Part shown: positions 7,272-36,152 of the stretch, one piece after another | How the letters are laid out: every line of letters starts with the position of its first letter | Position numbering within the stretch: the stretch's first letter is position 1 | DNA from: a virus | Length of the DNA stretch: 43,354 bases | IMG/VR virus record: IMGVR_UViG_3300045988_068374 | Direction: 5' to 3' (one strand) | Translations under genes and position numbers: made by a program | Notes under the pieces: generated by a model | What the model was told of the DNA's origin: nothing | The model's input: the letters and a program-made list of their open reading frames with translations, nothing else | The model's database searches: none

Positions 7272-8729
7272 ATGCCGGAATACTATATTGATTATTTAAG
7301 CCCTACGCAGAGCGAGTTTTTATCCGCTGCTGCAAAGTATGTTTTCTTCGGCGGTGCGCGAGGCGGCGGCAAAAGCTTTGTTGTGCGTGTGGCCGCTGTG
7401 CTGTACTGCTTCAAATACCCCGGCATAACGTGCATGATAGTACGTAAAACGTACCCCGAATTGCAAGAAAACCACATTGTGCCGCTTACAAGGGATTTGC
7501 ACTGCTACGCGCCCGAAAAGGCGCAGAGGCTTGCGCAATACAACGATCAGAAGAAAGTTATTACTTTCCCGAACGGCAGCCGCATTTTATTCCGATACTG
7601 CGATACGGATAAGGACGCGGAACGCTTTCAGGGCACTGAAACGGATATTTTATTTATTGATGAGGGCACACACCAAACAGAGGAACGTTTTCGTAAGCTT
7701 ACGGCCTGTGTGCGCGGCGCGAACGACTTTCCGCACCGCATTTATGTTACCTGTAACCCCGGCGGCGTAGGGCATGCGTGGGTAAAGCGGCTGGCGATAG
7801 ATCGCGTTTACAAGGATGGGGAAAGCCCCGGCGATTACACTTTTATTCAAAGCAAGGTAACGGATAACAAGCCGCTGATGGATGCAGACCCCGATTACAT
7901 ACGCAAGCTTGAAGCACTGCCGCCTAAGCTGCGCAAGGCGTGGCTCGAAGGCGAGTGGGATATATTCGACGGTGCGTTCTTCGAGGATTTCCGTGCAGCG
8001 CCCGACAGATTACTGTGCGAAGAGGCCGGAATAACGCCCGAAGAGGCAATAGAGCAGCGCAGATACACGCATGTTATCCCGGCATTCGATTTAAACTCCG
8101 GGCAGGCTCGCGGCTGGACGATATACAGATCATATGACTTTGGCTACAACAAGCCGTTTAGCTGCGCGTGGTGGGCTATCGACTACGACGGTGTGCTTTA
8201 TCGCATATTGGAGTTGTACGGCTGCACGGATACGCCGAACGAGGGCGTTAAGTGGACGCCGGACGAGCAGTTTAAGCGCATTAAGGAAGCAGAAGATACA
8301 CACCCGTGGCTAAAGGGCAGAAAGATATTGGGCGTGGCAGACCCGTCGATATGGGATGTATCACGCGGCGTATCGGTTGCGGAAACCGCCGAGAAATACG
8401 GCGTATACTTCGATCCCGGAGACAACAAGCGGCTTGCAGGCTGGATGCAGTGCCATTACAGGCTGCAATTTGATACAAACGGCTTTCCGCGCATGTATGT
8501 ATTTGATAACTGCAAGGGCTTTATACGCACGATACCGCTTTTGATGTACGACGAGCACAAGCCGGAGGACTTGGATACATCACTTGAGGATCATATCGCC
8601 GATGAGTGGCGCTATATGTGCATGGCACGGCCTGTAAAGCCGATAATACCCGAAAAACCGCGCGAGATCATTTCCGATCCGCTCAATCAATTTAAAAAGG
8701 ATGGATACAAAGCAAATGGATATCACTAA
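7272..8729 (+). CDS. terL: terminase large subunit
   Basis: Walker A-like motif FFGGARGGGKSF, Walker B-like motif ILFIDEGTH, C-terminal nuclease region. 485 aa, positioned before the portal. Confidence 0.9.
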   Translation: MPEYYIDYLSPTQSEFLSAAAKYVFFGGARGGGKSFVVRVAAVLYCFKYPGITCMIVRKTYPELQENHIVPLTRDLHCYAPEKAQRLAQYNDQKKVITFPNGSRILFRYCDTDKDAERFQGTETDILFIDEGTHQTEERFRKLTACVRGANDFPHRIYVTCNPGGVGHAWVKRLAIDRVYKDGESPGDYTFIQSKVTDNKPLMDADPDYIRKLEALPPKLRKAWLEGEWDIFDGAFFEDFRAAPDRLLCEEAGITPEEAIEQRRYTHVIPAFDLNSGQARGWTIYRSYDFGYNKPFSCAWWAIDYDGVLYRILELYGCTDTPNEGVKWTPDEQFKRIKEAEDTHPWLKGRKILGVADPSIWDVSRGVSVAETAEKYGVYFDPGDNKRLAGWMQCHYRLQFDTNGFPRMYVFDNCKGFIRTIPLLMYDEHKPEDLDTSLEDHIADEWRYMCMARPVKPIIPEKPREIISDPLNQFKKDGYKANGYH

Positions 8730-10641
8730 TCAGTATGATCCGCTCCGCGCGGAGGTGACGAATGCTCCCGAACAGGCAAACGCCGAGACAGCGGCGCAGG
8801 TGATGGGCGTTAAAGCGATAGGCGAGCAGCAGATAAATGAGCTTATGCAGGTGCTTACAAAGTACCGCGCGGGCAAAAACTCCGTTGATAGCCGCATTAT
8901 AGCCGCCGAAAACTGGTGGAAGCTGCGCAACGATGTTGAGGAGGATAAGGCCGGGCACGCAAAGCCCGGTTTCCGTTCAAAAAGCGGCTGGCTGCACAAT
9001 GTGATCAACAACAAACATGCTGACGCTATGGATGCATACCCCGAGCCTAACATACTGCCGCGTGAGCAGGGCGATAAGCTTGAGGCGGCTATGCTTTCAA
9101 AGATAATCCCCGTAGTGCTGGAAAAGAACCAGTTTGAAACTACGTACAGTAAAGTAATGTGGTCAAAATTGAAAACCGGCACGGGCGTTTACAAGGTGAT
9201 TTGGGATAAGAACAAGATGAACGGCTTAGGCGATATCAGCGTTGAGAAGTGCAACATACTCAATCTGTTCTGGGAGCCGGGCGTTGAGGATATCCAGCAG
9301 TCGAAATACTTCTTCGAGGTGGATTTTCAGGATGAGGACGATGTGCGCGAGATGTTTCCGCTTGAGCTGCCGGAGGGGAAGCAGATACCGCACGACTTTA
9401 TAACAAGCAAATTCCGCTACGACGATCATGTAGATACAACGAGCAAAGTGCCTGTTATCAGCGCGTACTACCACAAAAACGGTGTGCTGCACTACATTCT
9501 GTTTGTGCCCGGCACTGTGCTGTACGCGACGGAGAACGACCCCGAAAGGCTGCTGACGGGCTGGTACGATCACGGCAAGTACCCGTATGTGTTCGATGCG
9601 CTGTTCCCCATTGAGGGCAGCCCCTGCGGCTATGGCTATGTAGATTTGTGCAAAGCGCCACAGACGGAAATCGACCTTTTGAAAACTGCGTATGTTGAAA
9701 ATGCCATGGTAGGCGCAAAGCCGAGATACTTCAAGAAAGCAAACTGCGGCGTGAACATAGAGCAGTTTACTAATCTTAATGAATCCATTGTAAACGTAGA
9801 GGGCAGCCTTTCCGAGGATAACCTTGCACCGATAACGCACGATAATCTCGACGGCAACTATATTGAGATGCTGCAGCTCAGTATAAACGAGCTGCGCGAG
9901 ACTTCCGGCAACACGGAAACGGCGACGGGCACAACATCAAGCGGCGTTACCGCTGCATCGGCGATAGCGGCCTTGCAAGAGGCAAGCGGCAAGGGCAGCA
10001 GAGACAGCACCAAAGGCAGCTACAGGGCGTACAGCGAGGTAAACTACCTTGCAATAGAGCTGATACGCCAGTTTTACGATGCGCCGCGACAGTTCCGCAT
10101 TCTCGGCGACGGCGGGCAGGAGATGTTTTTAAGCTACTCCAACGAGGGCTTACAGCCTCAGCCGCAGACATTCAGCGGTTATGATATCGGCAGCCGCATC
10201 CCGGAGTTTGATATACGCATTGTGCCGCAGAAGCGCACGGCGTACACAAAGATGTCAAACAATGAATTGGCCTTGCAGTTTTACGGCCTGGGCTTTTTCA
10301 ATCCGCAGCAGACCGATCAGGCGCTTGCATGCCTTACGATGATGGATTTTGATAGCATAGACGATGTGCGAAAGACCATTAAGCAGAACGGAACACTATT
10401 TGAGCGCTTCAATACCCTGCTGCAGGTATCGGCAATGCTGGCAGCAAAGTGCGGCGACGCGAGATCGCTTGCGCAGATACAGATGCTCGCACAGCAATCC
10501 AACGCGCAGATGCCGACGGCACAGGTAGCGGCGGGTATGCCTCCGGAAGAACCGGCAAACGACAGGGAGCATGCACAGGTAAGCAATGCGCGGGCACAGA
10601 CGAGAGAGGCGGCAATGCCCGACGGAGGTACAGCATCATGA
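8701..10641 (+). CDS. portal protein
   Basis: 646 aa, immediately after TerL and before the protease, scaffold and capsid genes. Called by size and position. Confidence 0.75.
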   Translation: MDTKQMDITNQYDPLRAEVTNAPEQANAETAAQVMGVKAIGEQQINELMQVLTKYRAGKNSVDSRIIAAENWWKLRNDVEEDKAGHAKPGFRSKSGWLHNVINNKHADAMDAYPEPNILPREQGDKLEAAMLSKIIPVVLEKNQFETTYSKVMWSKLKTGTGVYKVIWDKNKMNGLGDISVEKCNILNLFWEPGVEDIQQSKYFFEVDFQDEDDVREMFPLELPEGKQIPHDFITSKFRYDDHVDTTSKVPVISAYYHKNGVLHYILFVPGTVLYATENDPERLLTGWYDHGKYPYVFDALFPIEGSPCGYGYVDLCKAPQTEIDLLKTAYVENAMVGAKPRYFKKANCGVNIEQFTNLNESIVNVEGSLSEDNLAPITHDNLDGNYIEMLQLSINELRETSGNTETATGTTSSGVTAASAIAALQEASGKGSRDSTKGSYRAYSEVNYLAIELIRQFYDAPRQFRILGDGGQEMFLSYSNEGLQPQPQTFSGYDIGSRIPEFDIRIVPQKRTAYTKMSNNELALQFYGLGFFNPQQTDQALACLTMMDFDSIDDVRKTIKQNGTLFERFNTLLQVSAMLAAKCGDARSLAQIQMLAQQSNAQMPTAQVAAGMPPEEPANDREHAQVSNARAQTREAAMPDGGTAS

Positions 10642-10946
10642 TAAATATATCTGTAAAGAGCCGCGAGGATATGATAGAGATATGCGCTCAAGGCCACGCA
10701 AACGCCGCTCCGAAGGGCGAGGACGTTGTGTGTGCGGCGGCGACGATACTTATAAGGACGCTTGCAAAAACGCTTGAGGCAGCAGTGCCCGATATGGTAA
10801 AGGCCGATGTGGGCGATGGCAAGGCGAGCATATCCGTAACAGGCTATGATCCCGTGGCGGCTGTCGCTATCGAGACTGTATGCACGGGTTTCAGGCTATT
10901 GCAGGAGCAATATCCCGAACATATAAAAATTTTTGCAGAAAAATAA
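10638..10946 (+). CDS. prp: Prp-like cysteine protease (ribosomal-processing protease / DUF464 family), phage-encoded
   Basis: ATGA overlap with the portal stop. AQGHANAAPKGEDVVCAAATILIRT carries the GHA....G.D.VCAA signature of Prp/YsxB. Internal start of track ORF 10449..10946. Confidence 0.75.
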   Translation: MINISVKSREDMIEICAQGHANAAPKGEDVVCAAATILIRTLAKTLEAAVPDMVKADVGDGKASISVTGYDPVAAVAIETVCTGFRLLQEQYPEHIKIFAEK

Positions 10947-10959
10947 AAAAAGTGGCTAA

Positions 10960-10990
10960 GGGTGGAGTGACATGCTCCACCCCTTTTTTA
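10960..10990 (+). terminator. rho-independent terminator (copy 1 of a repeated cassette)
   Basis: GGGTGGAG-tgacatg-CTCCACCC followed by CTTTTTTA. Confidence 0.8.
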
Positions 10991-11037
10991 TTATGCTTAA
11001 AGCGTGGACGCGGAACATAAGTTCACCTCCTTTAAGA

Positions 11038-11072
11038 GCCGCCCCGGCAGACGGCGGCATGAGTAGTCTGCC
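11038..11072 (+). ncRNA. candidate H-type pseudoknot in a non-coding leader
   Basis: S1 pairs GCCGCC (11038-43) with GGCGGC (11053-58). S2 pairs GGCAGAC (11046-52) with GTCTGCC (11066-72). The strands interleave with loops of 2, 0 and 7 nt. Confidence 0.3.
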
Positions 11073-11127
11073 AAACCTTTTTCTCCCGGACGGGGTGTCT
11101 CCCCCTTCGCCCCGTCCACTTTTATAT

Positions 11128-11194
11128 ACCGCTTTAGTTTAACGGTAAAACGCTCGGAGAGATAGAGATGCAGGTTCGAGCCCTGCAGGCGGTA
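11128..11194 (+). ncRNA. tRNA-like element: canonical acceptor, D and T arms, but no canonical anticodon arm
   Basis: Acceptor ACCGCTT/AGGCGGT (7 bp). U8, D stem GTTT/AAAC, loop AACGGTA with GG. T arm GCAGG-TTCGAGC-CCTGC. Only 18 nt (GCTCGGAGAGATAGAGAT) lie between the D and T arms and cannot form a 5-bp stem. No encoded CCA. Confidence 0.45.
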
Positions 11195-11239
11195 CGACGG
11201 GCTCGCCCACCTACGGGCAAATAAATAGGAGGCATGTAA

Positions 11240-12259
11240 ATGCACAACAAATTCAAATGGCTGCAGCTTTTCGCGGACGGTACCGGCGAGGGCGGAGCGG
11301 CCGGATCGGGCGTTACTTCACCTGCCGACGCCGGGCAGGACACGGGCGTAAATGCGTCTGCCGTCGCCGGACAGACAGTTGAGCCGACTCAGGCGGACAG
11401 GCTCAGAGAGCTTGGAGTGCCGGAGGCAAAGCTTAAACGGGCGAAATACAGTCAGAAAGCTGCGCCGCAGAAGCAGCAGGAGACTACAGCGCAGGCCGCC
11501 GCTGCGGAAACACAGGAAGTCGCAGAGGAAACCAAGGACACCGCAAAGAGGCTCAGTTGGGATGAGATCATGGCAGACCCCGAATACAACGGGGAGATGC
11601 AGAAGGTAGTCAAGGCCGCAAAGGAAAAGCTCAAAACGTCGGCTGAGGGGCTTGAAAAGCTCACTCCGGCCATTCAGCTTATTGCGAAGAAATACGGAGT
11701 TGATGCCGGAGACTACGAGGCCATATCTAAGGCCGTTGTAGACGACGACGCATACTACGAGGAACGCGCAATGGAGCTGGGCGTTACCACCGATGTCGCA
11801 AAGCAGCTTGATAAATCGGAGAAAATGATGCGAGCCGCCGAGGAGCAGCAGCAGAAGTTTATCAACGAGCAAAAGCTCATGGAGCATATCGGAAAGCTTA
11901 ACCGGCAGGCTATCGAATTGCAGCAGAAATACCCTGATTTCAACCTCGGCAAGGAGCTTAACAATCCTACTTTCGCACGGCTTACCGCGCCTGATCTTAA
12001 TCTCCCGCTTGAGGACGCTTACGAGCTTGTCCACCGAGAGGAAATCAAGGAAAACATAAGGCAGGCAGCGCTAAAAGCGTCGATACAGCAGGTTTCAAAT
12101 GCGGTGCAGTCCAACAAAAACCGCCCTAATGATGGCGTAAGCAAGTCCTCTAACGCTTCCGTTCAGACGTTTAATTACCAAAACGCCACGAAAGCACAGC
12201 GAGAGGCACTGAAAGCCCGTATAAGATCGGGTGAAAAGATATTCCCCGGCCAGCTTTAA
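11240..12259 (+). CDS. scaffolding protein with Prp-type N-terminal leader
   Basis: AGGAGG lies 7 nt upstream. Acidic, Ala/Gln/Lys-rich coiled-coil composition. Positioned before the capsid gene. N-terminus is MHNKFKWLQLFA/DG. Confidence 0.75.
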   Translation: MHNKFKWLQLFADGTGEGGAAGSGVTSPADAGQDTGVNASAVAGQTVEPTQADRLRELGVPEAKLKRAKYSQKAAPQKQQETTAQAAAAETQEVAEETKDTAKRLSWDEIMADPEYNGEMQKVVKAAKEKLKTSAEGLEKLTPAIQLIAKKYGVDAGDYEAISKAVVDDDAYYEERAMELGVTTDVAKQLDKSEKMMRAAEEQQQKFINEQKLMEHIGKLNRQAIELQQKYPDFNLGKELNNPTFARLTAPDLNLPLEDAYELVHREEIKENIRQAALKASIQQVSNAVQSNKNRPNDGVSKSSNASVQTFNYQNATKAQREALKARIRSGEKIFPGQL

Positions 12260-12305: not shown

Positions 12306-13460
12306 ATGATCGATTTTAATTGGCTGCAGCTTTTTGCAGATGCAGGCACTGTTGTTAACACCCTTGTAAACAACGGCACTTCCAACTACACCAACGCATA
12401 CACCGGCGACGCTGTTGCCGCAAGCCCCAGCACCAACACTCTGGCACCGGAGCTCAAGACCTTTTACGACACTGAGCTGCTGGAAAATGCGCGTACCGAG
12501 ATGTTCTATGCGCAGTTTGGCCGCAAGCAGCGCCTGCCGAAAAACGGCGGCACGACTATTGAGTGGAGAAAGTTCAACACTTTTGATCGCGCAAGCGAGC
12601 TCAAGGAGGGCGTGATCCCCACCGGCCAGCAGTTCGGCTCTTCGAGCCTTACCGCATCCATCTCGCAGTACGGCACTTACACCTCCATCACCGATAAACT
12701 TGAAATGCGAGCCTATGATAACGTCATTCTCGCGGCGACCGAGGAAATGGGCGCGTCCGCTGCGGCAACGCAGGAGACGCTTATCCGCGATGCGCTGCTT
12801 GTCGGCACTAACGTAATGTACTGCGATAACATCGACACCGACGGCAACAAGCTTTCTACGCCTACCACTCCGGCGACCATGGGCGCAGGCGGCAGCACTG
12901 CCGGTTCGGGCGGCGCTTCGACTCCTGACGGCTGGGCACTGCTTACCCCCACCATGGTAAACAAGGCAGTTACCAAGATGAAGAAGGATCGCGTACCTCG
13001 CATCAACGGCAAGTATTATGCGGTTATCCATCCCTCTGTTGCGTATGATCTGCGCCAGTCCAAGGAGTGGATAGAGGTACATAAGTATGCCGCTACCGGC
13101 GAGATATTCAACGGCGAGATCGGCGAGCTGCACGGCTGCCGCTTCATCGAGGATACCTTTGCTCCCATTCTCGGCGGCAGCTACATCTACTCCGGCAGCA
13201 CTACCTACAAGAACAAGTCCAACGGCGTTACCTATGCCACTTACTTCTTCGGCAAAGACGGCTTCGGTATCGTTGACCCCGAAGGCGGCGGACTTGAAAT
13301 GATCATCCACGATAAGGACGAGATCGGCGGTCCGCTCAATCAGTTCAGCACCATCGGCTATAAGTTTGAAACCAACGGTGCTACCATCCTGTACCCGGAG
13401 CGTGTGCTCCGCGTAATGTCCGTCAGCTCGTATTCCGCGACTGACGAGGAAAACAAGTAA
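12306..13460 (+). CDS. major capsid protein (HK97 fold; resembles the N4-gp56 capsid family from memory) with Prp-type leader
   Basis: N-terminus MIDFNWLQLFA/DAG. FYDTELLENAR..FAQFGRKQ.LPKNGG.TIEWRKF...L.EGV.P.G and QYG.Y.SITDKLE resemble the N4-gp56 family. Position after the scaffold gene. Confidence 0.85.
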   Translation: MIDFNWLQLFADAGTVVNTLVNNGTSNYTNAYTGDAVAASPSTNTLAPELKTFYDTELLENARTEMFYAQFGRKQRLPKNGGTTIEWRKFNTFDRASELKEGVIPTGQQFGSSSLTASISQYGTYTSITDKLEMRAYDNVILAATEEMGASAAATQETLIRDALLVGTNVMYCDNIDTDGNKLSTPTTPATMGAGGSTAGSGGASTPDGWALLTPTMVNKAVTKMKKDRVPRINGKYYAVIHPSVAYDLRQSKEWIEVHKYAATGEIFNGEIGELHGCRFIEDTFAPILGGSYIYSGSTTYKNKSNGVTYATYFFGKDGFGIVDPEGGGLEMIIHDKDEIGGPLNQFSTIGYKFETNGATILYPERVLRVMSVSSYSATDEENK

Positions 13461-13470
13461 TACGGCAAGG

Positions 13471-13490
13471 GGGAGGGGATATCCCCTCCC
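13471..13490. repeat. perfect 20-bp GC-rich palindrome just after the capsid gene (hairpin, no U-tract)
   Basis: GGGAGGGGATATCCCCTCCC. Confidence 0.85.
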
Positions 13491-13510
13491 TCCCGTGAAA
13501 GGAGGCAATT

Positions 13511-13774: not shown

Positions 13775-13803
13775 ACAGCCGCCTGCAATGGCGGCTGTTT
13801 TAA
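13775..13803 (+). terminator. rho-independent terminator
   Basis: ACAGCCGCC-tgcaat-GGCGGCTGT followed by TTTTAAT. Confidence 0.7.
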
Positions 13804-18076: not shown

Positions 18077-21000
18077 ATGGCTAAAAAAATCAACAGGGAA
18101 GAAATAAAGGCCGAAGTAAAAAGACGGCAGCAAAACGCAGCGAGAGATTATGCCGAAAAAGCCGATTTGATAGCCGCCGGTTATAAAACCGCAAAAACAA
18201 ACAGCGCCTCCGGCTCTGCCGGTAAAAAGCCAATAGGAGCAAGCACTTCCAAATCGAACGTACTTTCTCAGATCGATGAGATACGAAACGAGCTCGGCAG
18301 CAGGAATAAACTTAGCGCAGATGCGCTTATTGCCAATAATCCGGCGTATGTATACACAAAAGCATACGGCGACGGGAAAACGGGTGCGGCGGCGAACAAG
18401 CCGGTAAAGGGCACGGCGACACCTCGCAGCCGCTTTGAGCCTGCCGACACCGGCAGACCGCTTGGCAGAGCATCGGCGCAAAGGGCTTTTACGTCCACGC
18501 CCACGGGCAATTTCAAGGGCGAGGCGGTTTTGAAGAGCGCACTTTCTTCAACGGGCGCGGCCTATAAGAAGCTGGGCGCGGATGTTACGTCCTCAACCGG
18601 CAATCTTTCAATGGGTGAGAGCGCACGGGCGGCGATAGGCGAGGCCAAGACTGCGAAAAAAGAGGGCAGGCAGGTCAAGCCGGGGCAGGCCCAGCGCAAG
18701 GCGGAGCAGGACAAGATAAAAAGCTTTAATGACGGCTGGGCAGGAGACTTCAAGCAAAAGCTGCTGGAAAGCGCCGAGGAAAGCTCAAAACGTGCGTATG
18801 AGTACGAGCAGGAAGCTAAAGAGGGCTTGGGCAAATTCGGTCAGGGCGTTGTTGACTTCGGCATAGCGGGCGCACAGTTTGCCGGTGATGCGCTGCTTAA
18901 CGCTGTTGCGCCCGGCACAGGTCTTGCGGCAATGGCAGGACGAGCATACGGTTCTGCCTCACTGGACGCACAGCAACGCGGTCTGAGCGAGGGTGAGCAG
19001 CAGATATCCGGCTTAAAGAGCGCGGCTATCGAAATGCTCACGGAAAAGCTTTTCGGTTCGGTCTCCAAGGTCGCATACGGTAAGGGCATTATAAAAAACG
19101 AAAGCCTTGTCAACAGCCTTGTAAACCGCCTTGCAAAGACGGACAGAGGCCGCACGGCGCTCAAGGTTTTAGTCGGCGCGAATGAAGAGGGCTTGGAGGA
19201 AGTGCTCTCAGATATCCTCAATCCTATCGCAGACCGCATACTCAAGCTTGATGACGGAAAAGGCGACTGGTCAGACCTTGCCGATGATTTTGACACTCAG
19301 CAGATGCTTGAGGACTACATCATAGGCGGTGCGCTCGGCCTCGTGGGTGCCGGCACAAACGTTGTGAGCGGCCAGTACAGAGCCGAGAACGCACAGCAGA
19401 GGGCGTATGAGGAATATCAGCGCCAGTTAGTCAATGCCGGTCTTGCCACAGAGCAGGGCGGCGACGCACAGCTTACGGCAGAGAAGTATAAAAACATCCT
19501 CGATCAGAGCACACAGCGCGGCAAGCGCAACCTCAGTGATAAGGAAACAGCAAACCTTGAGAGTTTGATACGCGGTACATATGCTCAGAAGGACGCAAGC
19601 GACGTAAGCACACGCCTTGCGCAACTGGGTACGGATGCTTCGGAGCAGACCGTAAATGCCATAGTCAAGGCCGTAAACGGCGAAACACTCAGCAGAGCGG
19701 AGCAGAAAGCATTTGATGCAAACCCATATTCTCAGCGCGTCGTTAACGAAATGCTCGACACAGAGGGCGTGACAAGCAACGAATGGTACGCAGACAGGGC
19801 AAGTGCGCAGAGCTTCACGCCGGAGGTCAGCAGCGGCATCAATATAGAGCAAGCACAAAATGTCCTTAACACCAGCACGGCTAACAATCCCCAATTTGTA
19901 AACAGCATGGCGCGGCAGTACGAAGTTGCGCCGGAAGTGGTCGAGCGCACATATAACCTCAATCCGACTGCACCGCAGGCGTTTGAGACGGCGTTTAACG
20001 CGGTTTATCAGATGGGACAGCAGGGGACGGACAAGGCCGCGCTCTACAAAGTGCCCGTGCTCAACACTGCACAGGCGAACATTGCGTATCAGATGGGCGC
20101 AGACAGCGTTAACGCGGCAGATGTGAGCACAGAAGCGCCCACACAGGCGGCAACTGTTCAGGCGGCAGCGCCGGTCACTATCAATAACACACAGGAGGTA
20201 AACGAGAATGGAGTACGTATACACAACGTCGCGGAGCGGATTAACGGTCAGAATACCGAAGGACAGATACGCGGAGTGGAAACAGGCGCAGGAGAAAATG
20301 TCGCCGGAGGAAGTCAAAAAGAACAAGGCGGCATTGGCACGGCTCAAATCAAAGCTGGCGAAAAAGTAAGCTACAAGGGCAAGCAGCAAAAGGGCGTTTA
20401 TTATGCCGCAGAGGACACCGAGGACATGAAAAAAGGCCGCGAGCTCGCGGAGAGCTACGGCTATAAGGTCATGTATTTTGTTGGCGGCAATATCCGCTAT
20501 GCCGGCGGCGAGTTCAGAGGCGTTGTTGACACGGCAAACAAGACCGTCATGGTAAGAGCGGATCATCCCGACTACACCGCAGAGCAGATAATGCGCCACG
20601 AGATGGGGCATGCGGCGTTTGAAAACGGCGATCTGAGCTTGAACGAGGCAAAAGAAATGCTGCTTGGCGACTTCACTGAGGACGAACTAAACGAGCTTAT
20701 CGAGATATACAGCAGCGAATACGGCGGCATTCTCAGCACCGAGGAGGCTTTTGAGGAAATCTGCTGCGACGCGCTGGGCAGAATGAACATCTTCGAGGGC
20801 ACGGATTTAAACAGCGAAAGCTACGGGAAAGCACAGGACACCGTGCGCAAATACGCCGCCGAGAGAACCGGCAGCAAGGGCAGAGCTCCGCCGAAAAAGG
20901 GCGGGGTAAAGTATAGCTATGCGGGCAAACACGCGCGGACAGCAGACCTTGAACAGCTTGAAAGAGCTAAACAAATGCAGACGCAAGGTGACGACATGGA

Positions 21001-24000
21001 GAATATCCGCAAGGCTACCGGCTGGTTCAAAGGCCGAGACGGAAAGTGGCGGTTTGAGATCGACGATAGCAAGGCGGAGTTTCGCAGAGACGGCGACGTG
21101 CGGCTCATGCAGGAGGAAGGCTATCGGCGTATGCAGGAGCTTACTGATAAGTGGATAGCAAGCATTAATGAGGGGACGGATTTCACAGAGGCTGAACAAG
21201 CCGAAATGGAACAGCTGGGGGAAAAATACTACGACACTGTGTGGGAAGAGAAATACATGCTGACAGACTTCTTGAAGCATGACGAGCTCTTTGAGGCATA
21301 CCCCCGATTGAAAGGTGTAGCGTTGCAATTTGACGATCTACCAGCCGGTACTAACGGCTTTTTCAGCAAGCGCAGCAACACCATAGTCCTCAGTGATAAG
21401 CTTTTCGGTAAGGAAGCTGATGTGCTGATACACGAGATACAGCACATCATACAGAATTACGAGGGCTTTACAAAAGGTTCAAACCCCCAGTACTGGAATA
21501 ATCGCATGGAAAACGGATATTCCAAACGGTGGAGTACGGGCGAGGAAATGATGCCGAGTGAGCTTTACAGGAACACGGCGGGAGAGATCGAGGCAAGAGA
21601 CGCAGCGAGCCGCCGTACACTGACACCCGAGGAGCGAAAAAATAAAGCCCCCGATCTCGGAGACGAGAATACTGTGTTTGCAGAGGACGGGGATGGCTAC
21701 GCCATGAGCCAAAGCGAACAGGACAGCGTGAAGGAACAGCTGCGGGAGCATCAGGATGCGCTGAACAATATGAAAGCCGTCGCCACAATTCGTGATAACG
21801 GCTGGAGAGGCATGAGTACCGGAGCGTTCCGGCAGAAGATCGTCAACAATCTGAAGAAGACAGGCTACCGCGTAGATAATCCGAGCATCGGCGTGATTGT
21901 CTTCGACGAGAAGCTGCTGAACCGAAGCTTAAATTACATTCAGACAGATGCGGAGGCGGCGGCATATCAGGCGCTGCCAATGGTGTTGAAACGCGGCATT
22001 GAGATCAGTGAGCATGGCAACCACAAGGGGAGAGACTATGAAACACTGACTATCGCAGCCCCAGTGGAGCTGAACGGAAAACGTGGAAATATGGCGGTGG
22101 TGGTGATGAAAACCAAGGGCAACCGCTATAAGGTGCACCGCATTCTGACCCCGGAGGGCACGGCTTTTGCGCTGCCGGAAATGACTAACGCAGAGCCTAC
22201 CACCGTCGGGGCTTTCACCAACGTAAGTCAAACGTTGGGAGGGAGCGCACCGGCCATCAGCTCTGCGTCTGAAAACAGTATACCTACAAGCAATCAGTCT
22301 GTCAAGCGCAATTATTCCCGCGAGCCGGAAAAGCTTAACGAGCTGCGGCGGCAGAATGAGCGGAAGCTTGCGCAGGCTACGGCAGAGGATGCCGCAAACG
22401 AGAACGAGCGCGGCCTTATACGCGACTATCAGAAGCAGTACAGCAAGGTCGAGGACATACGCGAAAAGCTCAGTGCGGCACAGCAGACGCTTACAGAGGC
22501 CGAGGACAGCGGCGCGGACTACGACACCACGACCAAGGCAAAAAACCGTTTTACGCTGTTGAGCAAGCAATATGCGCGAGAGCACCGCAAGCTTAACGGC
22601 TACGGCAGCACAAAGGCGCTTCAAAATGTGCTTGAGAGAGTCAGCGCAAGAACATCTAAGGATGCAGAGCATATTGACAACCGCAATTTCTCAAACGTGG
22701 GCGACCGAAGCCTAAAGCCGTTTCAGATGGAGCACCCGGAGCTGCACAAATATTATGAGGACATGGCGCAGACCGTGCTTTATGATATCGGAATGGCAAC
22801 TCAATTCCGTACTACGAACGGCTATCCTAAAACCAAGTTCACCGACGGCTTTAAGCGTGCGCTGGGCGGCAGTTCGTTTAATGACGGGCTTCAAGCGCTG
22901 CTCGACATTTCAAACGATCAGGGCAGCGAAAACTATGCTTTGGCAAAGCGCATGGAGCTGTTTTTGGACGATCTTCTCACCAACGGCTACAAGGGCGCAA
23001 GCGGCAACGCCGAGTACATACGCGCTAAAGAAAACATATCGGGCGGTAATACTGTGTGGGAAAACTTCCTTGAGGAAAACAGCCTTGCTATCGCGGATGG
23101 CCTGATAACGGAAAAGGAGCTATATAAGGAGTTTACACAGATGCGGTCTGACCTGCCGGAGGGCATGGGCGCAGCTTCCGCCAACTTCACGGGCGAGGAG
23201 GCTGTAGGCGAGCGCTGGGTAACAGAGGCTCAGGGCGAGGGCGACAGCGCCCTGCACCCGATAAGCAAGGAGCAGGAAGCAAACCTCGCCGAACAGCAGC
23301 ACAGAGCGCCGCAGGAGATACCCAAGAAAGATCTGAACGGCAAACTCACAAGCAAGCACGTTTCCACCATAGCCAACAGCGGCATGACACCGGCTGAATT
23401 CTCCGACGCGCTGAGAGAGGATGCGGCACTGGGTAAGTTCTCGCACATTGCATACTCCGACGAGGAAGCGCTTAAAAAGGCCGAACGCGCTATCTCTGAC
23501 GACGGCTGGGATCAGGCGCTTGCAAACTACAAGGCCGAGATAAACAGCGGCAGAGTATCGAAGGACAACACTGTTATGGGCATTGCCCTTTACAACAACG
23601 CCGTCAACAGCGGAGACTACGCAACGGCAATGGACATTGCCTCGCTCATGGTCAAAAACTCCACGAACACGGCGCAGTCATTGCAGGCCATGCGCATTCT
23701 CAACAAGCTCTCGCCCGAATGCAGACTGTACCTTGCGGCAAAGTCGATAGAGAACATCGAGGAAGACCTCAACGAGCGATACAAGGACAACAAGGCGGAT
23801 ATCCATGTTGACAAAATCCTTTACGATGAGTATGCCAAGGCGCTCAGGCAGGGCAATGAGGACGGCATAAAAACCGCGTGGGCGAACATAGAGCAGAGCG
23901 TAGCACAGCAGATAAACGCGACATGGTACGAAAAGCTCAACAACTTCCGCTATCTCGCTATGCTGGGCAATCCGAGAACGCATGTCCGAAACATCGTAGG

Positions 24001-25765
24001 CAACGCATTTTTCGTGCCCGTCAGAGCTGTCAAGAACACGATAGCATACGGCCTTGAGAATATAGCCGACGCGAAGATAAACGGCGGCATAGAGCGAAGC
24101 AAGGCAATGCTCAACTCAAGTAATGCGGCGGATGCGGCGCTTGTCAAATACGCAATGTCGGACTATGAGGCTGTGCAGGAGGTCATACTTTCGGGCGGCA
24201 AGTATGTCGATACATTTCAGGGCATCGACAAGCACAGGACGATATACAAGACCAAGATACTTGAGGCGGCACGCAAGGGCAACTCGGCAGCGCTTGACGC
24301 GGAAGACGCGTGGTTCTGCAAACCCGCGTATGCAAACGCGCTTGCCAAGTGGTACAAGGCAAACGGCATAAGCGCCGAACAGCTTAACACCGGCAATGTG
24401 CCGGAGGAGACGATAATCAAAGCACAGACCATTGCCATCAAGGAAGCGCAGAAAGCCACTTACCGCGATACCAACTGGTTTTCCGCTCAGGTCAGCAGGC
24501 TCGGCAAGGTGGATAACAAAGTTGCTGCTGTGCTCATTGAGGGCGTTCTGCCGTTCAAGAAAACCCCGGCCAATATCTTAGCCCGCGCTGTTGAATACTC
24601 GCCGGTCGGACTTGTAAAGTCCCTTGCGCTGGACACCAAAAAGGTCAAGGCATATGTAAACGGCGACGTTGAAAACGGCATGAGCCCCGCGCAGTTTATA
24701 GACGATGTTTCGGCAGGGCTTACGGGCTCGGCGCTTATGGGGCTGGGTATACTTTTAGCCTCATGGGGCGTTCTGAGCGGCGGTGATGACGATGACGAAA
24801 AGCAAAACTATTTCGACGATCTGAGCGGCAAGCAGAATTACGCCTTGAGCATAGGCGGTCTGAGCATCACGCTTGACTGGCTCGCGCCGGAGAGTATGCC
24901 GCTGTTTGTCGGCGTTGAGCTGTTCAACTCCCTGAGCAGCAAAAACGAGGACAAGGGATTTTTGCAGAACCTCATGAGCTCGGTCATGAGCCTGAGTACA
25001 CCGATGTTTGAAATGTCGATGCTGCAAAGCGTAAACGATCTTTTCGATAACCTCGCGTACATCAAGCAGGGACAGGGTACTTTTAAAATCGTATCGAGCA
25101 TGGCGGCAAACTACATATCGCAGTATTTCCCGACGCTGTTCGGACAGACTGAGCGCTCATTCGAGGAAACTCAGCGCGAGACGACATACATTGACCGCAA
25201 CAGCAAAGTCGGCTCTGAGATACAATACATGTGGGGCAAGATCGCAAACAAGATACCGTTTTACGATTTCAGTCAGATACCGTACATCGACGCATGGGGG
25301 CGCACGGAAGAAACCGGCAATCTCTTTGAGAGGATGCTCAACAACTTCATCAATCCCGCATATGTCAAGAAGGAGCGCCCGACGGAGATCGACGGCGAGC
25401 TTGAGCGGCTTTACGACCTCGGCGAAACGAGCGTATATCCCGGCCGCGCAAAGACGAACACCAAGATAAACGGCGAGTACCTGACAGCCGACGAGTATGT
25501 AAAATATGCAACGACGAAGGGGCAGACCTCATACGAGCTTGCGCAGGGCGTTATAAACAGCGCGGCATATTCCGGCGCATCAGACCCCGAAAAGGCGTAC
25601 ATGCTTAAATATGTCTATTCCTACGCCGATCATATTGCAAAGTACGAGGTCAACAACGACTATTCACTTGCAAAATGGGAGATGGCGGCATACAAGAGCG
25701 CAAACCCGATGCAGGCTATAATCGACCACGCACGGGAATATTACAATCCCGACAAAGAAAACTAA
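18077..25765 (+). CDS. giant (2,562 aa) multi-domain virion / ejection protein of polyvalent type
   Basis: Uninterrupted ORF. Gly-zipper hydrophobic segment around 18844-18955. Two HExxH motifs: HEMGH at 20597-20611 and HEIQH at 21431-21445. Hydrophobic helix LTGSALMGLGILLASWGVL around 24716-24783, followed by DDDD. Confidence 0.8.
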   Translation: MAKKINREEIKAEVKRRQQNAARDYAEKADLIAAGYKTAKTNSASGSAGKKPIGASTSKSNVLSQIDEIRNELGSRNKLSADALIANNPAYVYTKAYGDGKTGAAANKPVKGTATPRSRFEPADTGRPLGRASAQRAFTSTPTGNFKGEAVLKSALSSTGAAYKKLGADVTSSTGNLSMGESARAAIGEAKTAKKEGRQVKPGQAQRKAEQDKIKSFNDGWAGDFKQKLLESAEESSKRAYEYEQEAKEGLGKFGQGVVDFGIAGAQFAGDALLNAVAPGTGLAAMAGRAYGSASLDAQQRGLSEGEQQISGLKSAAIEMLTEKLFGSVSKVAYGKGIIKNESLVNSLVNRLAKTDRGRTALKVLVGANEEGLEEVLSDILNPIADRILKLDDGKGDWSDLADDFDTQQMLEDYIIGGALGLVGAGTNVVSGQYRAENAQQRAYEEYQRQLVNAGLATEQGGDAQLTAEKYKNILDQSTQRGKRNLSDKETANLESLIRGTYAQKDASDVSTRLAQLGTDASEQTVNAIVKAVNGETLSRAEQKAFDANPYSQRVVNEMLDTEGVTSNEWYADRASAQSFTPEVSSGINIEQAQNVLNTSTANNPQFVNSMARQYEVAPEVVERTYNLNPTAPQAFETAFNAVYQMGQQGTDKAALYKVPVLNTAQANIAYQMGADSVNAADVSTEAPTQAATVQAAAPVTINNTQEVNENGVRIHNVAERINGQNTEGQIRGVETGAGENVAGGSQKEQGGIGTAQIKAGEKVSYKGKQQKGVYYAAEDTEDMKKGRELAESYGYKVMYFVGGNIRYAGGEFRGVVDTANKTVMVRADHPDYTAEQIMRHEMGHAAFENGDLSLNEAKEMLLGDFTEDELNELIEIYSSEYGGILSTEEAFEEICCDALGRMNIFEGTDLNSESYGKAQDTVRKYAAERTGSKGRAPPKKGGVKYSYAGKHARTADLEQLERAKQMQTQGDDMENIRKATGWFKGRDGKWRFEIDDSKAEFRRDGDVRLMQEEGYRRMQELTDKWIASINEGTDFTEAEQAEMEQLGEKYYDTVWEEKYMLTDFLKHDELFEAYPRLKGVALQFDDLPAGTNGFFSKRSNTIVLSDKLFGKEADVLIHEIQHIIQNYEGFTKGSNPQYWNNRMENGYSKRWSTGEEMMPSELYRNTAGEIEARDAASRRTLTPEERKNKAPDLGDENTVFAEDGDGYAMSQSEQDSVKEQLREHQDALNNMKAVATIRDNGWRGMSTGAFRQKIVNNLKKTGYRVDNPSIGVIVFDEKLLNRSLNYIQTDAEAAAYQALPMVLKRGIEISEHGNHKGRDYETLTIAAPVELNGKRGNMAVVVMKTKGNRYKVHRILTPEGTAFALPEMTNAEPTTVGAFTNVSQTLGGSAPAISSASENSIPTSNQSVKRNYSREPEKLNELRRQNERKLAQATAEDAANENERGLIRDYQKQYSKVEDIREKLSAAQQTLTEAEDSGADYDTTTKAKNRFTLLSKQYAREHRKLNGYGSTKALQNVLERVSARTSKDAEHIDNRNFSNVGDRSLKPFQMEHPELHKYYEDMAQTVLYDIGMATQFRTTNGYPKTKFTDGFKRALGGSSFNDGLQALLDISNDQGSENYALAKRMELFLDDLLTNGYKGASGNAEYIRAKENISGGNTVWENFLEENSLAIADGLITEKELYKEFTQMRSDLPEGMGAASANFTGEEAVGERWVTEAQGEGDSALHPISKEQEANLAEQQHRAPQEIPKKDLNGKLTSKHVSTIANSGMTPAEFSDALREDAALGKFSHIAYSDEEALKKAERAISDDGWDQALANYKAEINSGRVSKDNTVMGIALYNNAVNSGDYATAMDIASLMVKNSTNTAQSLQAMRILNKLSPECRLYLAAKSIENIEEDLNERYKDNKADIHVDKILYDEYAKALRQGNEDGIKTAWANIEQSVAQQINATWYEKLNNFRYLAMLGNPRTHVRNIVGNAFFVPVRAVKNTIAYGLENIADAKINGGIERSKAMLNSSNAADAALVKYAMSDYEAVQEVILSGGKYVDTFQGIDKHRTIYKTKILEAARKGNSAALDAEDAWFCKPAYANALAKWYKANGISAEQLNTGNVPEETIIKAQTIAIKEAQKATYRDTNWFSAQVSRLGKVDNKVAAVLIEGVLPFKKTPANILARAVEYSPVGLVKSLALDTKKVKAYVNGDVENGMSPAQFIDDVSAGLTGSALMGLGILLASWGVLSGGDDDDEKQNYFDDLSGKQNYALSIGGLSITLDWLAPESMPLFVGVELFNSLSSKNEDKGFLQNLMSSVMSLSTPMFEMSMLQSVNDLFDNLAYIKQGQGTFKIVSSMAANYISQYFPTLFGQTERSFEETQRETTYIDRNSKVGSEIQYMWGKIANKIPFYDFSQIPYIDAWGRTEETGNLFERMLNNFINPAYVKKERPTEIDGELERLYDLGETSVYPGRAKTNTKINGEYLTADEYVKYATTKGQTSYELAQGVINSAAYSGASDPEKAYMLKYVYSYADHIAKYEVNNDYSLAKWEMAAYKSANPMQAIIDHAREYYNPDKEN

Positions 25766-34389: not shown

Positions 34390-34412
34390 TTTACGACAAA
34401 ATTTACGACAAC
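34390..34412 (+). repeat. arm-type repeat, right copy
   Basis: TTTACGACAAAATTTACGACAAC. It overlaps the integrase stop region. Confidence 0.85.
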
Positions 34413-35509
34413 GGAAGATAGAAGTTGCGCATAGTCTCCACATCGGCGTTTTTGTCTGTTTCGGAGAGTTTGATATATATTTCATGCACTATCTTCGGGT
34501 CACTCCATCCGCCGATAAGCATCGTCTGCCGCTCACTCCATCGGAGATGATAAGCAAGAGAAGCAAAGCTGCGCCTTAATCCGTGCAGCCCGACATTAGG
34601 CAAGCCGTTTTTGAGACAAACGCGGTGTATTCTGTCGCTGTGTGTGCCCGGATGTTCGGGGAGCAGCGGTTTATCATCGGGGATATCAAGACTGCTTATC
34701 AGCTCCGCAAGCCTTGGTATCATTATCGGCACATTGCGCCGCGATTTTTTTGTTTTGTTTGTGCTCTTGCGTACAAACCCACCGTCTTTGGAGGCTACCA
34801 CGCTGCCTCTTATGTGAATCATACCATCGTGGATATCTCGTGGAGTGAGGGCGATAAGCTCGGACCGGCGCAAGCTGTGAAGTGCTAAAAGCGCAGCAAG
34901 CTCACATTTTTCTCCCCGGGTAGCTTTTACAAACACTTCGATTTGGTTAAAATCAAGCCACGGCATTTCTTTGGGCACAACAGGCGGCAAAGCAACATTG
35001 TCGTGCTTTATACCGCATTTGTCCAGCACAGCGCTCATTAAGCCCCACTCGTTCTTCAATGTTTTTGCCGAGACACGCTTTGCTTCGCCGTTAACTACCT
35101 TCTGCCAGTCCTTTATGCTATATATATCCTCTCCGCAAAGGCTTGGGAATGCGTTGTTTTTTACCGATGTATAAGCCTTTAGCGTCGAGGGAGATATAAT
35201 ATTATCTTTACTGTTTAAATAATTGTCTATTGCTTTTTCCACAGTAAGAGATTGAGGCTTCTTGTCAACAGGCACAAAACCGGCGCGGATAGCCTGAGCT
35301 TTGGCTATGGCGGCTGCTTCCGTATCTTCAATGACCGTCACGCCCTCACGGCGAAGATCAACATACCACTTCTGCCCACGCTTACGCGGCGTGGGTATTT
35401 TTATTTCATCTCTCCTTTTGCGTTCGCGCTGAAGCTTCTCGCCGCAATAGCAGCAGTATACGGGATGAAGCTCATCCGGTATATCCGCTTTGCATTTTTT
35501 GCACTTCAT
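34403..35509 (-). CDS. int: tyrosine integrase with N-terminal zinc ribbon
   Basis: Internal ATG (MKCKKCKADIP...CCYCGEKL) with an AAGGAGA RBS. Catalytic-type motifs LHSLRRSEL, HGLRRSFASL and GGWSDPKIVHEIYIKL. Confidence 0.9.
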   Translation of the reverse strand: MKCKKCKADIPDELHPVYCCYCGEKLQRERKRRDEIKIPTPRKRGQKWYVDLRREGVTVIEDTEAAAIAKAQAIRAGFVPVDKKPQSLTVEKAIDNYLNSKDNIISPSTLKAYTSVKNNAFPSLCGEDIYSIKDWQKVVNGEAKRVSAKTLKNEWGLMSAVLDKCGIKHDNVALPPVVPKEMPWLDFNQIEVFVKATRGEKCELAALLALHSLRRSELIALTPRDIHDGMIHIRGSVVASKDGGFVRKSTNKTKKSRRNVPIMIPRLAELISSLDIPDDKPLLPEHPGTHSDRIHRVCLKNGLPNVGLHGLRRSFASLAYHLRWSERQTMLIGGWSDPKIVHEIYIKLSETDKNADVETMRNFYLPLS

Positions 35510-35573
35510 TATTCTCCTTAACCCCCTTAGATATTCGCCGAAAATAATTTTATAGCGAATAATGCCCACAGAA

Positions 35574-36152
35574 TTAATCCTGTGGGCGTTTTGCTGCTTT
35601 GGCATCATGAATTACGGTTTTCACCGCAAAGGAGATCAGGGCGACGGCAGCAAGCACCACGATAGCCAGGAACACGGCCAACACCGTTAAGCCGCCGGAG
35701 CGGAACAGACCGATGTTTTTAAGCTGTATATCAAATATTACATATCCGATGGTTGCGCATAGCAGGATAGCACATACACCTACAAGGCAGAAGATCAGCG
35801 GCCTGTAAACGGCGTTCATGCGCTTGTGGTACTCAACGTCCTTTTCCAGACATGCCGCTTTAACCTCCAATGCGTTTATCCGCTTTAGCTGGGTAACGCT
35901 GCCTTCTGTGTTTGTTATACCGAACAGCTCGTCTAAGGATAATCCGAGCGCTTTACAGGTTGCCGCAGAGTAATAAAGCAGCGGCTGCTTCGTAGTGCCG
36001 GAGTTGACGGAGCAAATGCTGTTGTAGGGAACGCCGCTTATCCTTGCCAGTTCTGCCAGCGTAAGACTGCTTGAAGCTCTCGCTTTTCGCAGCGCCTCAG
36101 GGTACTCGTCAAAATAAGATTGCATATCCTCCATTTTTGACACATTAAGCAT
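35574..36152 (-). CDS. membrane-anchored XRE-family HTH regulator (start uncertain: 36152, 36134 or 36125)
   Basis: LTLAELARISGVPYNSICSVNSG is an HTH. A coiled-coil follows, then two hydrophobic helices PLIFCLVGVCAILLCATIGYVIF and LTVLAVFLAIVVLAAVALISFAV. The track N-terminus is a translation of the upstream repeats. Confidence 0.7.
   Translation of the reverse strand: MLNVSKMEDMQSYFDEYPEALRKARASSSLTLAELARISGVPYNSICSVNSGTTKQPLLYYSAATCKALGLSLDELFGITNTEGSVTQLKRINALEVKAACLEKDVEYHKRMNAVYRPLIFCLVGVCAILLCATIGYVIFDIQLKNIGLFRSGGLTVLAVFLAIVVLAAVALISFAVKTVIHDAKAAKRPQD

Follow-up and report, generated by a model that had tools for sequence, protein, structure and literature searches.

The 293-nucleotide (nt) gap between the Prp cysteine protease gene and the scaffold-like protein gene of a viral genome (IMG/VR record IMGVR_UViG_3300045988_068374; "the window" is the whole 43,354-nt stretch of DNA that was analysed) appeared to hold a modular non-coding 5' leader with a tRNA-derived cloverleaf. 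This cloverleaf is tentatively read, with the leader as a whole, as a processing signal for RNase P and RNase Z, at somewhat under an even chance. The window belonged to a temperate, podovirus-like prophage of uncultured gut Clostridia. Sequence comparison established each module, its strand and fold, and purifying selection on it, as well as the recurrent pairing of a pseudoknot with a tRNA-like element.

The cloverleaf lay on the + strand at 11128-11194, as did all leader elements described below. Rfam family RF00005 matched exactly these positions over its full model (positions 1-71); the score was 49.2 bits, above the gathering score of 29, with E = 1e-7. The acceptor stem was formed by 11128-34 and 11187-93, the D arm (11137-51) carried the loop AACGGUA, and the T arm (11170-86) carried the loop UUCGAGC. 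All nucleotides of the tertiary core were intact (U8, A14, G18 G19, A21, G26, the A15-U48 pair and the UUCGAGC T loop), the discriminator was A at 11194, and CCA was not encoded. Between the D stem and the T stem there were 18 nt (11152-11169) compared with the 22-23 nt or so expected in a normal tRNA. This middle consisted of G26 at 11152, a mini-stem CUC/GAG (11153-55/11165-67) and a 9-nt loop (11156-64). The 3-base-pair (bp) CUC/GAG stem was the sole stem possible within the 18 nt, and the Rfam alignment cut the anticodon arm to 2 modelled pairs plus 9 nt. The initial annotation of this DNA, made from the letters alone, had described the module as lacking an anticodon arm and unable to form a 5-bp stem; the second statement held, while the arm was shortened to 3 bp plus 9 nt and not absent.

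ARAGORN at default settings found no tRNA and no tmRNA in the window. An intact tRNA in an alternative fold was rejected, as the one candidate given by ARAGORN at 80% thresholds, a 'tRNA-Ser(aga)', was distorted, with G33 and mismatches at two pairs of the anticodon stem, and the would-be anticodon differed between haplotypes (AGA, AUA and UGA). The module had neither U33 nor a conserved anticodon, and its anticodon stem fell short of 5 bp. Because the anticodon arm is collapsed and the loop varies freely, the module by its sequence does not and cannot decode, which agrees with the earlier view of it. An aminoacylation identity is probably lacking too, since the sequence showed neither G3:U70 nor G-1, nor a long variable arm. 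A tmRNA or two-piece tmRNA was rejected with ARAGORN and Rfam both negative, and an attP core or host tRNA fragment was rejected on the presence of both acceptor-stem halves and the distance of 23 kb to the integrase gene. Pairing of the loop (GGAGAGA) with the CU-rich spacer was suggested by the minimum-free-energy fold and was broken by uncompensated haplotype substitutions.

Comparison of relatives, drawn mostly from one large gut metagenome compendium, indicated that the tRNA-like fold is selected and that decoding is not. The 3' 25-mer of the element was present in 36 viral contigs, and the element itself in 38/38 relatives with at least 86% capsid-protein identity, a set collected by capsid protein alone and without reference to the RNA. 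Changes in those 38 relatives were confined to pairs that switch from G-C to G-U, to positions 16/17 of the D loop and to position 59 of the T loop. Among 28 unique leaders of the window lineage, 4/58 columns varied in the tRNA-like body, 5/9 in its 9-nt loop and 45-87% in the spacers. The four variable body positions were 2 and 6 in the acceptor stem (C/U, with G as the partner in both cases), 9, and 16 in the D loop. The two main clades showed 77% identity across the 4.8-kb head module, with about 55% in the Prp gene, and the stretch 11120-11297, at 92-100% identity, was the best conserved of the head module. In the cloverleaf pair count, 96.8% of cells were paired, against 40-50% in slid controls, with double-sided changes at 6 pairs; in the acceptor stem these affected 4/7 pairs (e.g., A1-U72 to G1-C72). 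This last exchange was found in the L203/L205 lineage (64% identical in the scaffold and 43% in Prp), which kept 24/26 nt of the 5' half of the element and had a different, still short middle of 15 nt. The Rfam score and the covariation thus showed the module to be a genuine cloverleaf.

Upstream of the cloverleaf, an H-type pseudoknot was found at 11038-11072, with stem 1 (S1) at 11038-43/11053-58 (GCCGCC/GGCGGC), loop 1 at 11044-45, stem 2 (S2) at 11046-52/11066-72 (GGCAGAC/GUCUGCC) and loop 3 at 11059-65 (NNNAGUA). The loops were 2/0/7 nt long, and those of homologues were 1-3, 0 and 7 nt. Stem substitutions in the window lineage replaced C by U where the partner is G, or A by G where it is U; they keep pairing (as G-U) on the + strand only and therefore place the pseudoknot on that strand. 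Sixteen variants had 98.5% of cells paired, as against 27-60% in slid controls. S2 was 98% paired with double-sided compensatory changes at 7/7 pairs and was replaced in full between lineages, its variants including GCCGGUG/CACCGGC, GCCGGGG/CCCCGGC, GCCCCGA/UCGGGGC, CCAGYCC/GGGCUGG and GCCCCGU/ACGGGGC. S1 was 99% paired and otherwise invariant, changing only from C to U where G is the partner. Part of the set had been collected with a pattern that prescribes the S1 sequence, so the support for this stem comes mainly from wobble-only changes in independently found sequences. The H-type pseudoknot proposed earlier was thereby upheld. A CU-rich anti-Shine-Dalgarno-like tract with the core YCUCC, CACCUCCUUU (CACCTCCTTT in DNA), lay just before it at 11024-11033, and 0/10 of its columns varied in the window lineage. 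Such a YCUCC tract, with the CUCC core, stood 1-10 nt upstream of every true pseudoknot found.

A covariance model of the motif (R1) scored 52.5 bits at the pseudoknot, which was a single copy in the window, and gave no match in 1 Mb of unrelated viral loci. Neither the window nor the L256, L267 and L261 loci gave an Rfam match at the gathering score to a riboswitch or cis-regulator (preQ1, SAM-II, fluoride, guanidine-III, EAR and others), and at E <= 10 no significant cis-regulator match was obtained in 10900-11300. The pseudoknot was found before an HNH endonuclease gene in L288, and it was followed by a strong terminator in L297/L304. In the L256 group, it stood before TerS, TerL and portal genes, one cassette being joined to three different downstream genes. 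By these sequence comparisons, YCUCC plus pseudoknot is a leader-RNA motif at operon heads of several unrelated phage groups, with no Rfam family. An abnormal tRNA-like element followed the pseudoknot in several separate lineages, among them L316 (6-nt anticodon loop, ARAGORN 'tRNA-???') and L358.

The contigs L256, L257, L264, L267, L269, L270 and L272 belonged to an unrelated phage group with an SPP1-like portal and carried the same pseudoknot. It lay inside a structured cassette, about 330 nt long, with a promoter-like sequence of its own and a terminator-like hairpin at the end (e.g., L256 8360-7990, minus strand).

Three other accounts of the CU tract and pseudoknot were rejected. A small minus-strand open reading frame (ORF) at 11033-10957, consisting of a ribosome-binding site AAAGGAGGTG, ATG and 20 codons, probably arises from the CU tract by chance. 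In the closest relatives its start is shifted by a 10-nt indel, in L210 and L251 a start codon at a suitable distance is missing, and substitutions in the neighbouring stems leave G-U on the + strand where the - strand would have A.C. A triple helix of CCUCC on the GGCGG strand of S1 would need four consecutive protonated C triples, and the distance from the tract to S1 differs between 1 and 10 nt. An rrn boxA or captured fragment of 16S, internal transcribed spacer and tRNA did not fit the order of the modules, gave no Rfam match to small-subunit ribosomal RNA, and lost its likeness to boxA in L236. The L236 tract itself reads UCACCUCCUUUCUA, which we take to equal the 3' tail of Bacillus-type 16S rRNA.

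The pseudoknot was followed by a pyrimidine-rich spacer with a second CUCC-type motif (11073-11087), in which 13/15 columns were variable and which was CU-rich in all lineages. Next came a GC hairpin with its tail (11088-11127), whose stem GGACGGGG/CCCCGTCC (11088-95/11110-17) was followed by ACTTTTATAT; the loop was C-rich ((U)CCCCCUUC) and the tail was ACUUUUAUAU. Its fold energy was -20.7 kcal/mol (z = -5.35). The stem covaried in four versions (GGACGGGG, GGGCGGAG, GGGCGGGG and GCGCGGGGG) with the loop kept, which confirmed the hairpin as real; it resembles a terminator or attenuator, and with its moderate U-tract it may act as an attenuator. The tail ACUUUUAUAU had only 4 consecutive U, the U-tract was weak in L203, and a simple terminator scan made no call.

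Between the cloverleaf and the scaffold gene, neither the sequence nor the terminator scan showed a terminator. A mini-hairpin GCCC-ACCUAC-GGGC (11205-11218), flanked by CUC...AAA, was located there 8 nt upstream of the ribosome-binding site. It was part of the minimum-free-energy fold, 1/14 of its columns varied in the window lineage, and its versions across lineages were GCCC/GGGC, GCCG/CGGC, GUGG/CCAC and GUCC/GGAC. From these features it looks like an operator, e.g., for scaffold autoregulation. An operator pattern scan led back to this phage group and added a single contig, L279. A 4-bp mini-hairpin with flanks (GA)CUC...A(A/G)A was also observed 8-15 nt before the scaffold ribosome-binding site in L236, L227, L235, L210, L251, L362 and L376. 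The leader ended with the Shine-Dalgarno sequence AGGAGG at 11227-32 and the scaffold start codon ATG at 11240 (together 11227-11242).

The gene order around the leader was TerL (7272-8729), P22-like portal (8701-10641), Prp cysteine protease (Pfam PF04327, ending at 10946), the gap, scaffold-like protein (11240-12259, matching phrog_13908) and major capsid protein (12306-13460). At 293 nt (10947-11239), the gap was the longest ORF-free stretch in the late region. The sole gap exceeding it, an apparent one 3' of the capsid gene, contains a real gene of 77 amino acids (aa; phrog_15239). The ORFs in the gap at 10972-11142 (+) and 10997-11245 (-) had no Pfam or PHROGs match and were disrupted by 10-nt and 6-nt indels in close relatives. 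A coding gap was therefore rejected and neither ORF is credible, as the initial annotation had judged; the positions it gave for the elements all agreed with the sequence, including AGGAGG at 11227-11232.

Two features missing from that annotation were the conserved mini-hairpin before the ribosome-binding site and a promoter over the Prp terminator. The terminator scan placed an intrinsic terminator after the Prp gene at 10960-10990 (+ strand; stem-loop 10960-10982, then a T-run). A candidate sigma-70-type promoter at 10967-10994 (+ strand; -35 GTGACA at 10967, 16-nt spacer, -10 TATTAT ending at 10994) matched the consensus at 10/12 positions and was embedded in the terminator hairpin. If active, as its sequence suggests, it would start transcription at about 11000-11002, which matches the position where the initial annotation began the leader. 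Relatives kept the motif GGGRTAGAGA followed by a TATRCT hexamer at the promoter site. The unit of scaffold, capsid protein and 77-aa gene was closed by a terminator at 13778-13795. Promoter and terminator would thus bracket a separate unit, which makes the block in the gap its 5' leader, and this scaffold-capsid unit is presumably highly expressed. In L236, L210, L227, L235, L251, L362 and L376, GGGRUAGAGA was seen 16-18 nt upstream of a -10-like hexamer, directly after the Prp stop codon. The 9-mer GAUAGAGAU of this motif also occurred in the loop region of the window tRNA-like module (11161-11169).

Genome bins of uncultured Clostridia from the human gut contributed three contigs with the same leader, which also occurred in many IMG/VR and ENA gut contigs. 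The 400 bases around it had no DNA match among GenBank phages, and the closest cultured phages showed only 26-29% capsid-protein identity. In relatives at 37-44% scaffold identity, the Prp-scaffold gaps were 225-310 nt long with the parts in the same order; this architecture, kept over such a distance, shows the leader to be old and its modules swappable. The slot of the cloverleaf was variously filled. L236/L252 had a tRNA-Trp(cca) with a good anticodon arm and a poor D arm, L242/L243/L250 a 'Pro(cgg)' with a 3-bp anticodon stem and C33 (Rfam 52 bits), L227 an 'Ile(gat)' with two acceptor mismatches, C33, C37 and an odd T loop, and L376 an 85-nt element with 50.8 bits in Rfam and none in ARAGORN. 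Judged by these sequences, the slot is an old, swappable cassette that is usually tRNA-shaped and decodes poorly or not at all. Several relatives encoded CCA. No leader was present in the remote relatives L253 and L255. The Prp-scaffold gap of L250 and L252 was about 660 nt long, with an extra ORF between the Prp gene and the leader promoter and the leader intact.

Outside this phage group, tRNA-like elements of 65-69 nt with shortened anticodon arms were seen in L091/L100/L136, L155 and L158 (L091 about 10000-10066; L155 3000-3044; L158 7359-7405). Their settings were a site after the SSB gene of a low-GC phage, a Companilactobacillus bobalius tRNA array, whose element had a 5-bp stem and a 3-nt loop, and a Coprenecus genome bin.

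In the processing-signal reading, three modules would act in turn. The first, of about 125 nt, comprises the single-stranded CU tract, the pseudoknot, the second CU-rich spacer and the GC hairpin with C-rich loop and U-tract, and is probably an attenuator and/or a released small RNA. The second, the cloverleaf, keeps the parts that RNase P, RNase Z and the CCA-adding enzyme would read, namely the 7-bp acceptor/T-arm stack, the elbow and U at -1. RNase P would most likely cut at 11127/11128 and RNase Z after A11194, and the two cuts would separate the 5' module from the scaffold-capsid mRNA and set the ends of both. In lineages encoding CCA, the tRNA shape may stay on the mRNA as a protective 5' cap. 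The third module would be the operator-like mini-hairpin with the strong ribosome-binding site before the scaffold gene. The 5' flank of the cloverleaf (UAUAU|A) had U at -1 and A at -4, which agrees with the 5'-leader preferences of bacterial RNase P, and similar flanks (AUAU|G or CUAU|G) preceded the tRNA-like elements of L242, L236 and L358. RNase P and RNase Z act on non-decoding tRNA-like structures in plant mitochondrial t-elements, MALAT1/mascRNA and phage regulatory RNAs (PMC4919922). The cloverleaf has the structure of a t-element or mascRNA-type element, with an acceptor/T-arm stack and elbow, non-decoding and inside what would be a longer transcript. A processing or stabilisation signal and an unclassified non-coding RNA were also among the possible roles suggested in the initial annotation.

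Several points weigh against this reading. The promoter, terminator and RNase sites are predictions from sequence. The C after the discriminator (A|CGA) is not known as the preferred context for Bacillus-type RNase Z, and the CCA encoded in several relatives blocks RNase Z, so that 3' processing may differ between lineages. Part of the tRNA-like set was found with patterns that fix T-arm or D-arm bases, a bias which the protein-derived set of 38 relatives removes for the most part and not entirely. The block of 92-100% identity could partly reflect recent recombination, and it reaches the scaffold start, on which the Prp cleavage motif places a constraint of its own. In L251 and in L362, a close relative of L376, a plain hairpin replaces the tRNA-like element, and in the distant relative L007 the gap is only 75-85 nt and the whole leader is missing. 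The tRNA-like element is therefore dispensable or replaceable. The initial annotation's view that the block looks like an insertion needs qualifying: L007 has the short gap, but a leader of 225-310 nt is common to relatives down to 37-44% scaffold identity.

Transcriptional control by the 5' module, as a conditional attenuator or a cis-acting RNA antiterminator with the tRNA-like element incidental, was considered doubtful. The order of promoter, pseudoknot, terminator-like hairpin and genes recurs in the window, the L256 group (TerS, TerL), L288, L297/L304 and L309, the pseudoknot cassette is portable between downstream genes, and RNA-only antiterminators are known (put, EAR and conAn2; PMC8191782). 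However, no alternative antiterminator pairing overlapped the hairpin, L236, L242 and L251 were without a terminator after the pseudoknot, the U-tract of L203 was weak, and no Rfam match to EAR or any riboswitch was obtained.

A stand-alone small RNA was thought unlikely as well. The 5' module would then act in trans through several C-rich anti-Shine-Dalgarno seeds, like LhrC, RoxS and RNAIII, and its 3' end would be made by the terminator or RNase P. It has its own promoter and terminator-like hairpin (both predicted), and three C/U-rich motifs lie in the single-stranded 5' tract, the spacer and the terminator loop, the same kinds of places in which LhrC carries such motifs. A strong terminator followed the motif in L297/L304. 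The resemblance to LhrC (RF00616) was weak, its 15.9 bits against a gathering score of 110 showing that the RNA is not a member, and a near-perfect anti-Shine-Dalgarno seed would offer little target specificity.

The CU tract could instead form a translational lock in cis, in which 11024-33 pairs with the scaffold ribosome-binding site at 11227-32 and is opened, e.g., by cleavage at the tRNA-like element; this was judged rather improbable. The complementarity noted in the initial annotation was present, and the minimum-free-energy fold of 10947-11260 paired 11026-31 with 11227-32 (z = -3.06). The tract was invariant, and L235 combined an unusual GGGAGG ribosome-binding site with a CUCCC tract. 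Complementarity to a consensus Shine-Dalgarno sequence is, however, expected by default, and covariation gave the pairing no support. In the L256 group two CU-tract variants combined freely with three downstream genes and ribosome-binding sites, a strong terminator followed the motif in L297/L304, and the spacing between CU tract and pseudoknot varied from 1 to 10 nt.

Release of the 67-nt RNA as a trans-acting tRNA mimic was given a similarly small probability. With CCA added, it would be a stable small RNA. It could act as decoy for, or inhibit, an enzyme or defence of the host that reads the tRNA body through acceptor, T arm and elbow, or it could carry an aminoacyl group for a non-ribosomal use. 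The L-shape determinants were intact (U8, A14, G18 G19, A21, A15-U48 and the T54-Psi55-C56-type UUCGAGC), and the strong purifying selection on the body, with a free loop, is what would be expected if the body alone matters. On the other hand, tRNA identity rules that do not depend on the anticodon rely on G3:U70, G-1 or a long variable arm, and no such identity set was found. The fixed site between leader and ribosome-binding site and the hairpin swap in L362/L251 point to a role in cis, and a decoy for an anticodon nuclease was excluded because the loop is not conserved.

A decaying tRNA gene that lost 4-5 nt of its anticodon arm and is kept, functionless, by hitch-hiking or as a recombination linker was regarded as very improbable: L236/L252 have a plausibly real tRNA-Trp(cca) and other relatives variously damaged tRNA-likes, L251 and L362 do without one, and short-armed tRNA-likes are sporadic in unrelated phages and genomes (L091, L155, L158), but useless DNA is quickly deleted from phage genomes, and here only structure-neutral body positions changed (4/58) next to a freely varying loop and spacers, the acceptor stem showed compensatory changes, the element was kept in 38/38 capsid-derived relatives and also in the L203 lineage, whose scaffold is 64% identical, and it formed the most conserved stretch of a head module 77% identical overall.

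The processing-signal reading was also compared with known systems. Phage tRNA genes (RF00005) share the 7-bp acceptor stem, U8, the GG D arm, the UUCGAGC T loop and A15-U48, and the slot of relatives contains near-normal tRNAs, whereas the window element has 18 nt from position 26 through the variable loop, compared with 22-23 nt in a tRNA, is rejected by ARAGORN and lacks CCA. The C4 RNA of P1/P7 and the CI RNA of P4 are small RNAs cut from the leader of their own operon by tRNA-processing enzymes. These RNAs mimic only an acceptor-like stem, while here a cloverleaf minus the anticodon arm is a separate module beside a candidate regulatory RNA. LhrC, RoxS and RNAIII of Firmicutes likewise have several C/U-rich anti-Shine-Dalgarno motifs in single-stranded stretches and the terminator loop, and their own promoter and terminator; the window RNA differs in its H-type pseudoknot and its co-oriented position directly upstream of structural genes, and its LhrC score was sub-threshold. 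HK022 put, EAR and conAn2 are structured RNAs placed after a promoter and before terminators at the head of long mobile-element operons (PMC8191782), without similarity in sequence or structure and without an Rfam match to the window RNA, and some lineages here have no terminator after the pseudoknot. The t-elements and the mascRNA/menRNA of MALAT1/MEN-beta are non-decoding tRNA shapes in a longer transcript with a stable tertiary element just upstream (PMC4919922). As in the window, their position allows them to set the 3' end of a structured RNA before them and the 5' end of the RNA after them. They are eukaryotic or organellar, in contrast to a phage mRNA leader with predicted cleavage and an H-type pseudoknot instead of a triple helix. 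'Phage-induced regulatory RNAs' have been listed among RNase P substrates (PMC4919922).

A more speculative and rather doubtful form of the processing-signal reading would make the leader a phage analogue of MALAT1/mascRNA. RNase P would then make the 3' end of a pseudoknot-protected regulatory RNA and release the capsid mRNA, tRNA genes having been repeatedly turned into processing signals; the regulatory RNA would be either a new class of cis-acting antiterminator/attenuator or a multi-seed anti-Shine-Dalgarno small RNA. Signals of this shape are established in organelles and mammalian long non-coding RNAs, and a literature search found no report of a tRNA-shaped processing signal in a bacteriophage structural-operon leader. 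A tRNA-derived module with selection on the parts used by RNase P, RNase Z and the CCA-adding enzyme would represent a natural 'minimal substrate'. To our knowledge, little has been learned of how phages of gut Clostridia regulate their late genes, and YCUCC plus pseudoknot is a candidate for a new class of regulatory RNA in that control. Elements of this kind, with an Infernal tRNA score and ARAGORN failure, should not be counted as decoding tRNAs in phage censuses.

Other features of the window were also recorded. The integrase gene was located at 34403-35608, and a repressor-like gene was also found within 34.4-36.2 kb. The N-termini of the scaffold (MHNKFKWLQLFADG, 11240-11281) and the capsid protein (MINFNWLQxFADAG, 12306-12350) had a common F-WLQ-FADG motif, which presumably resembles the leader of ribosomal protein L27 that is cut by Prp, and this fits with the phage encoding its own Prp protease. 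At 13470-13495, a G/C-rich hairpin GGGGGAGGGGATATCCCCTCCCTCCC without a U-tract directly followed the capsid stop codon and came before the 77-aa gene and its ribosome-binding site. A single ORF of 2562 aa occupied 18077-25765 in the tail and virion region.

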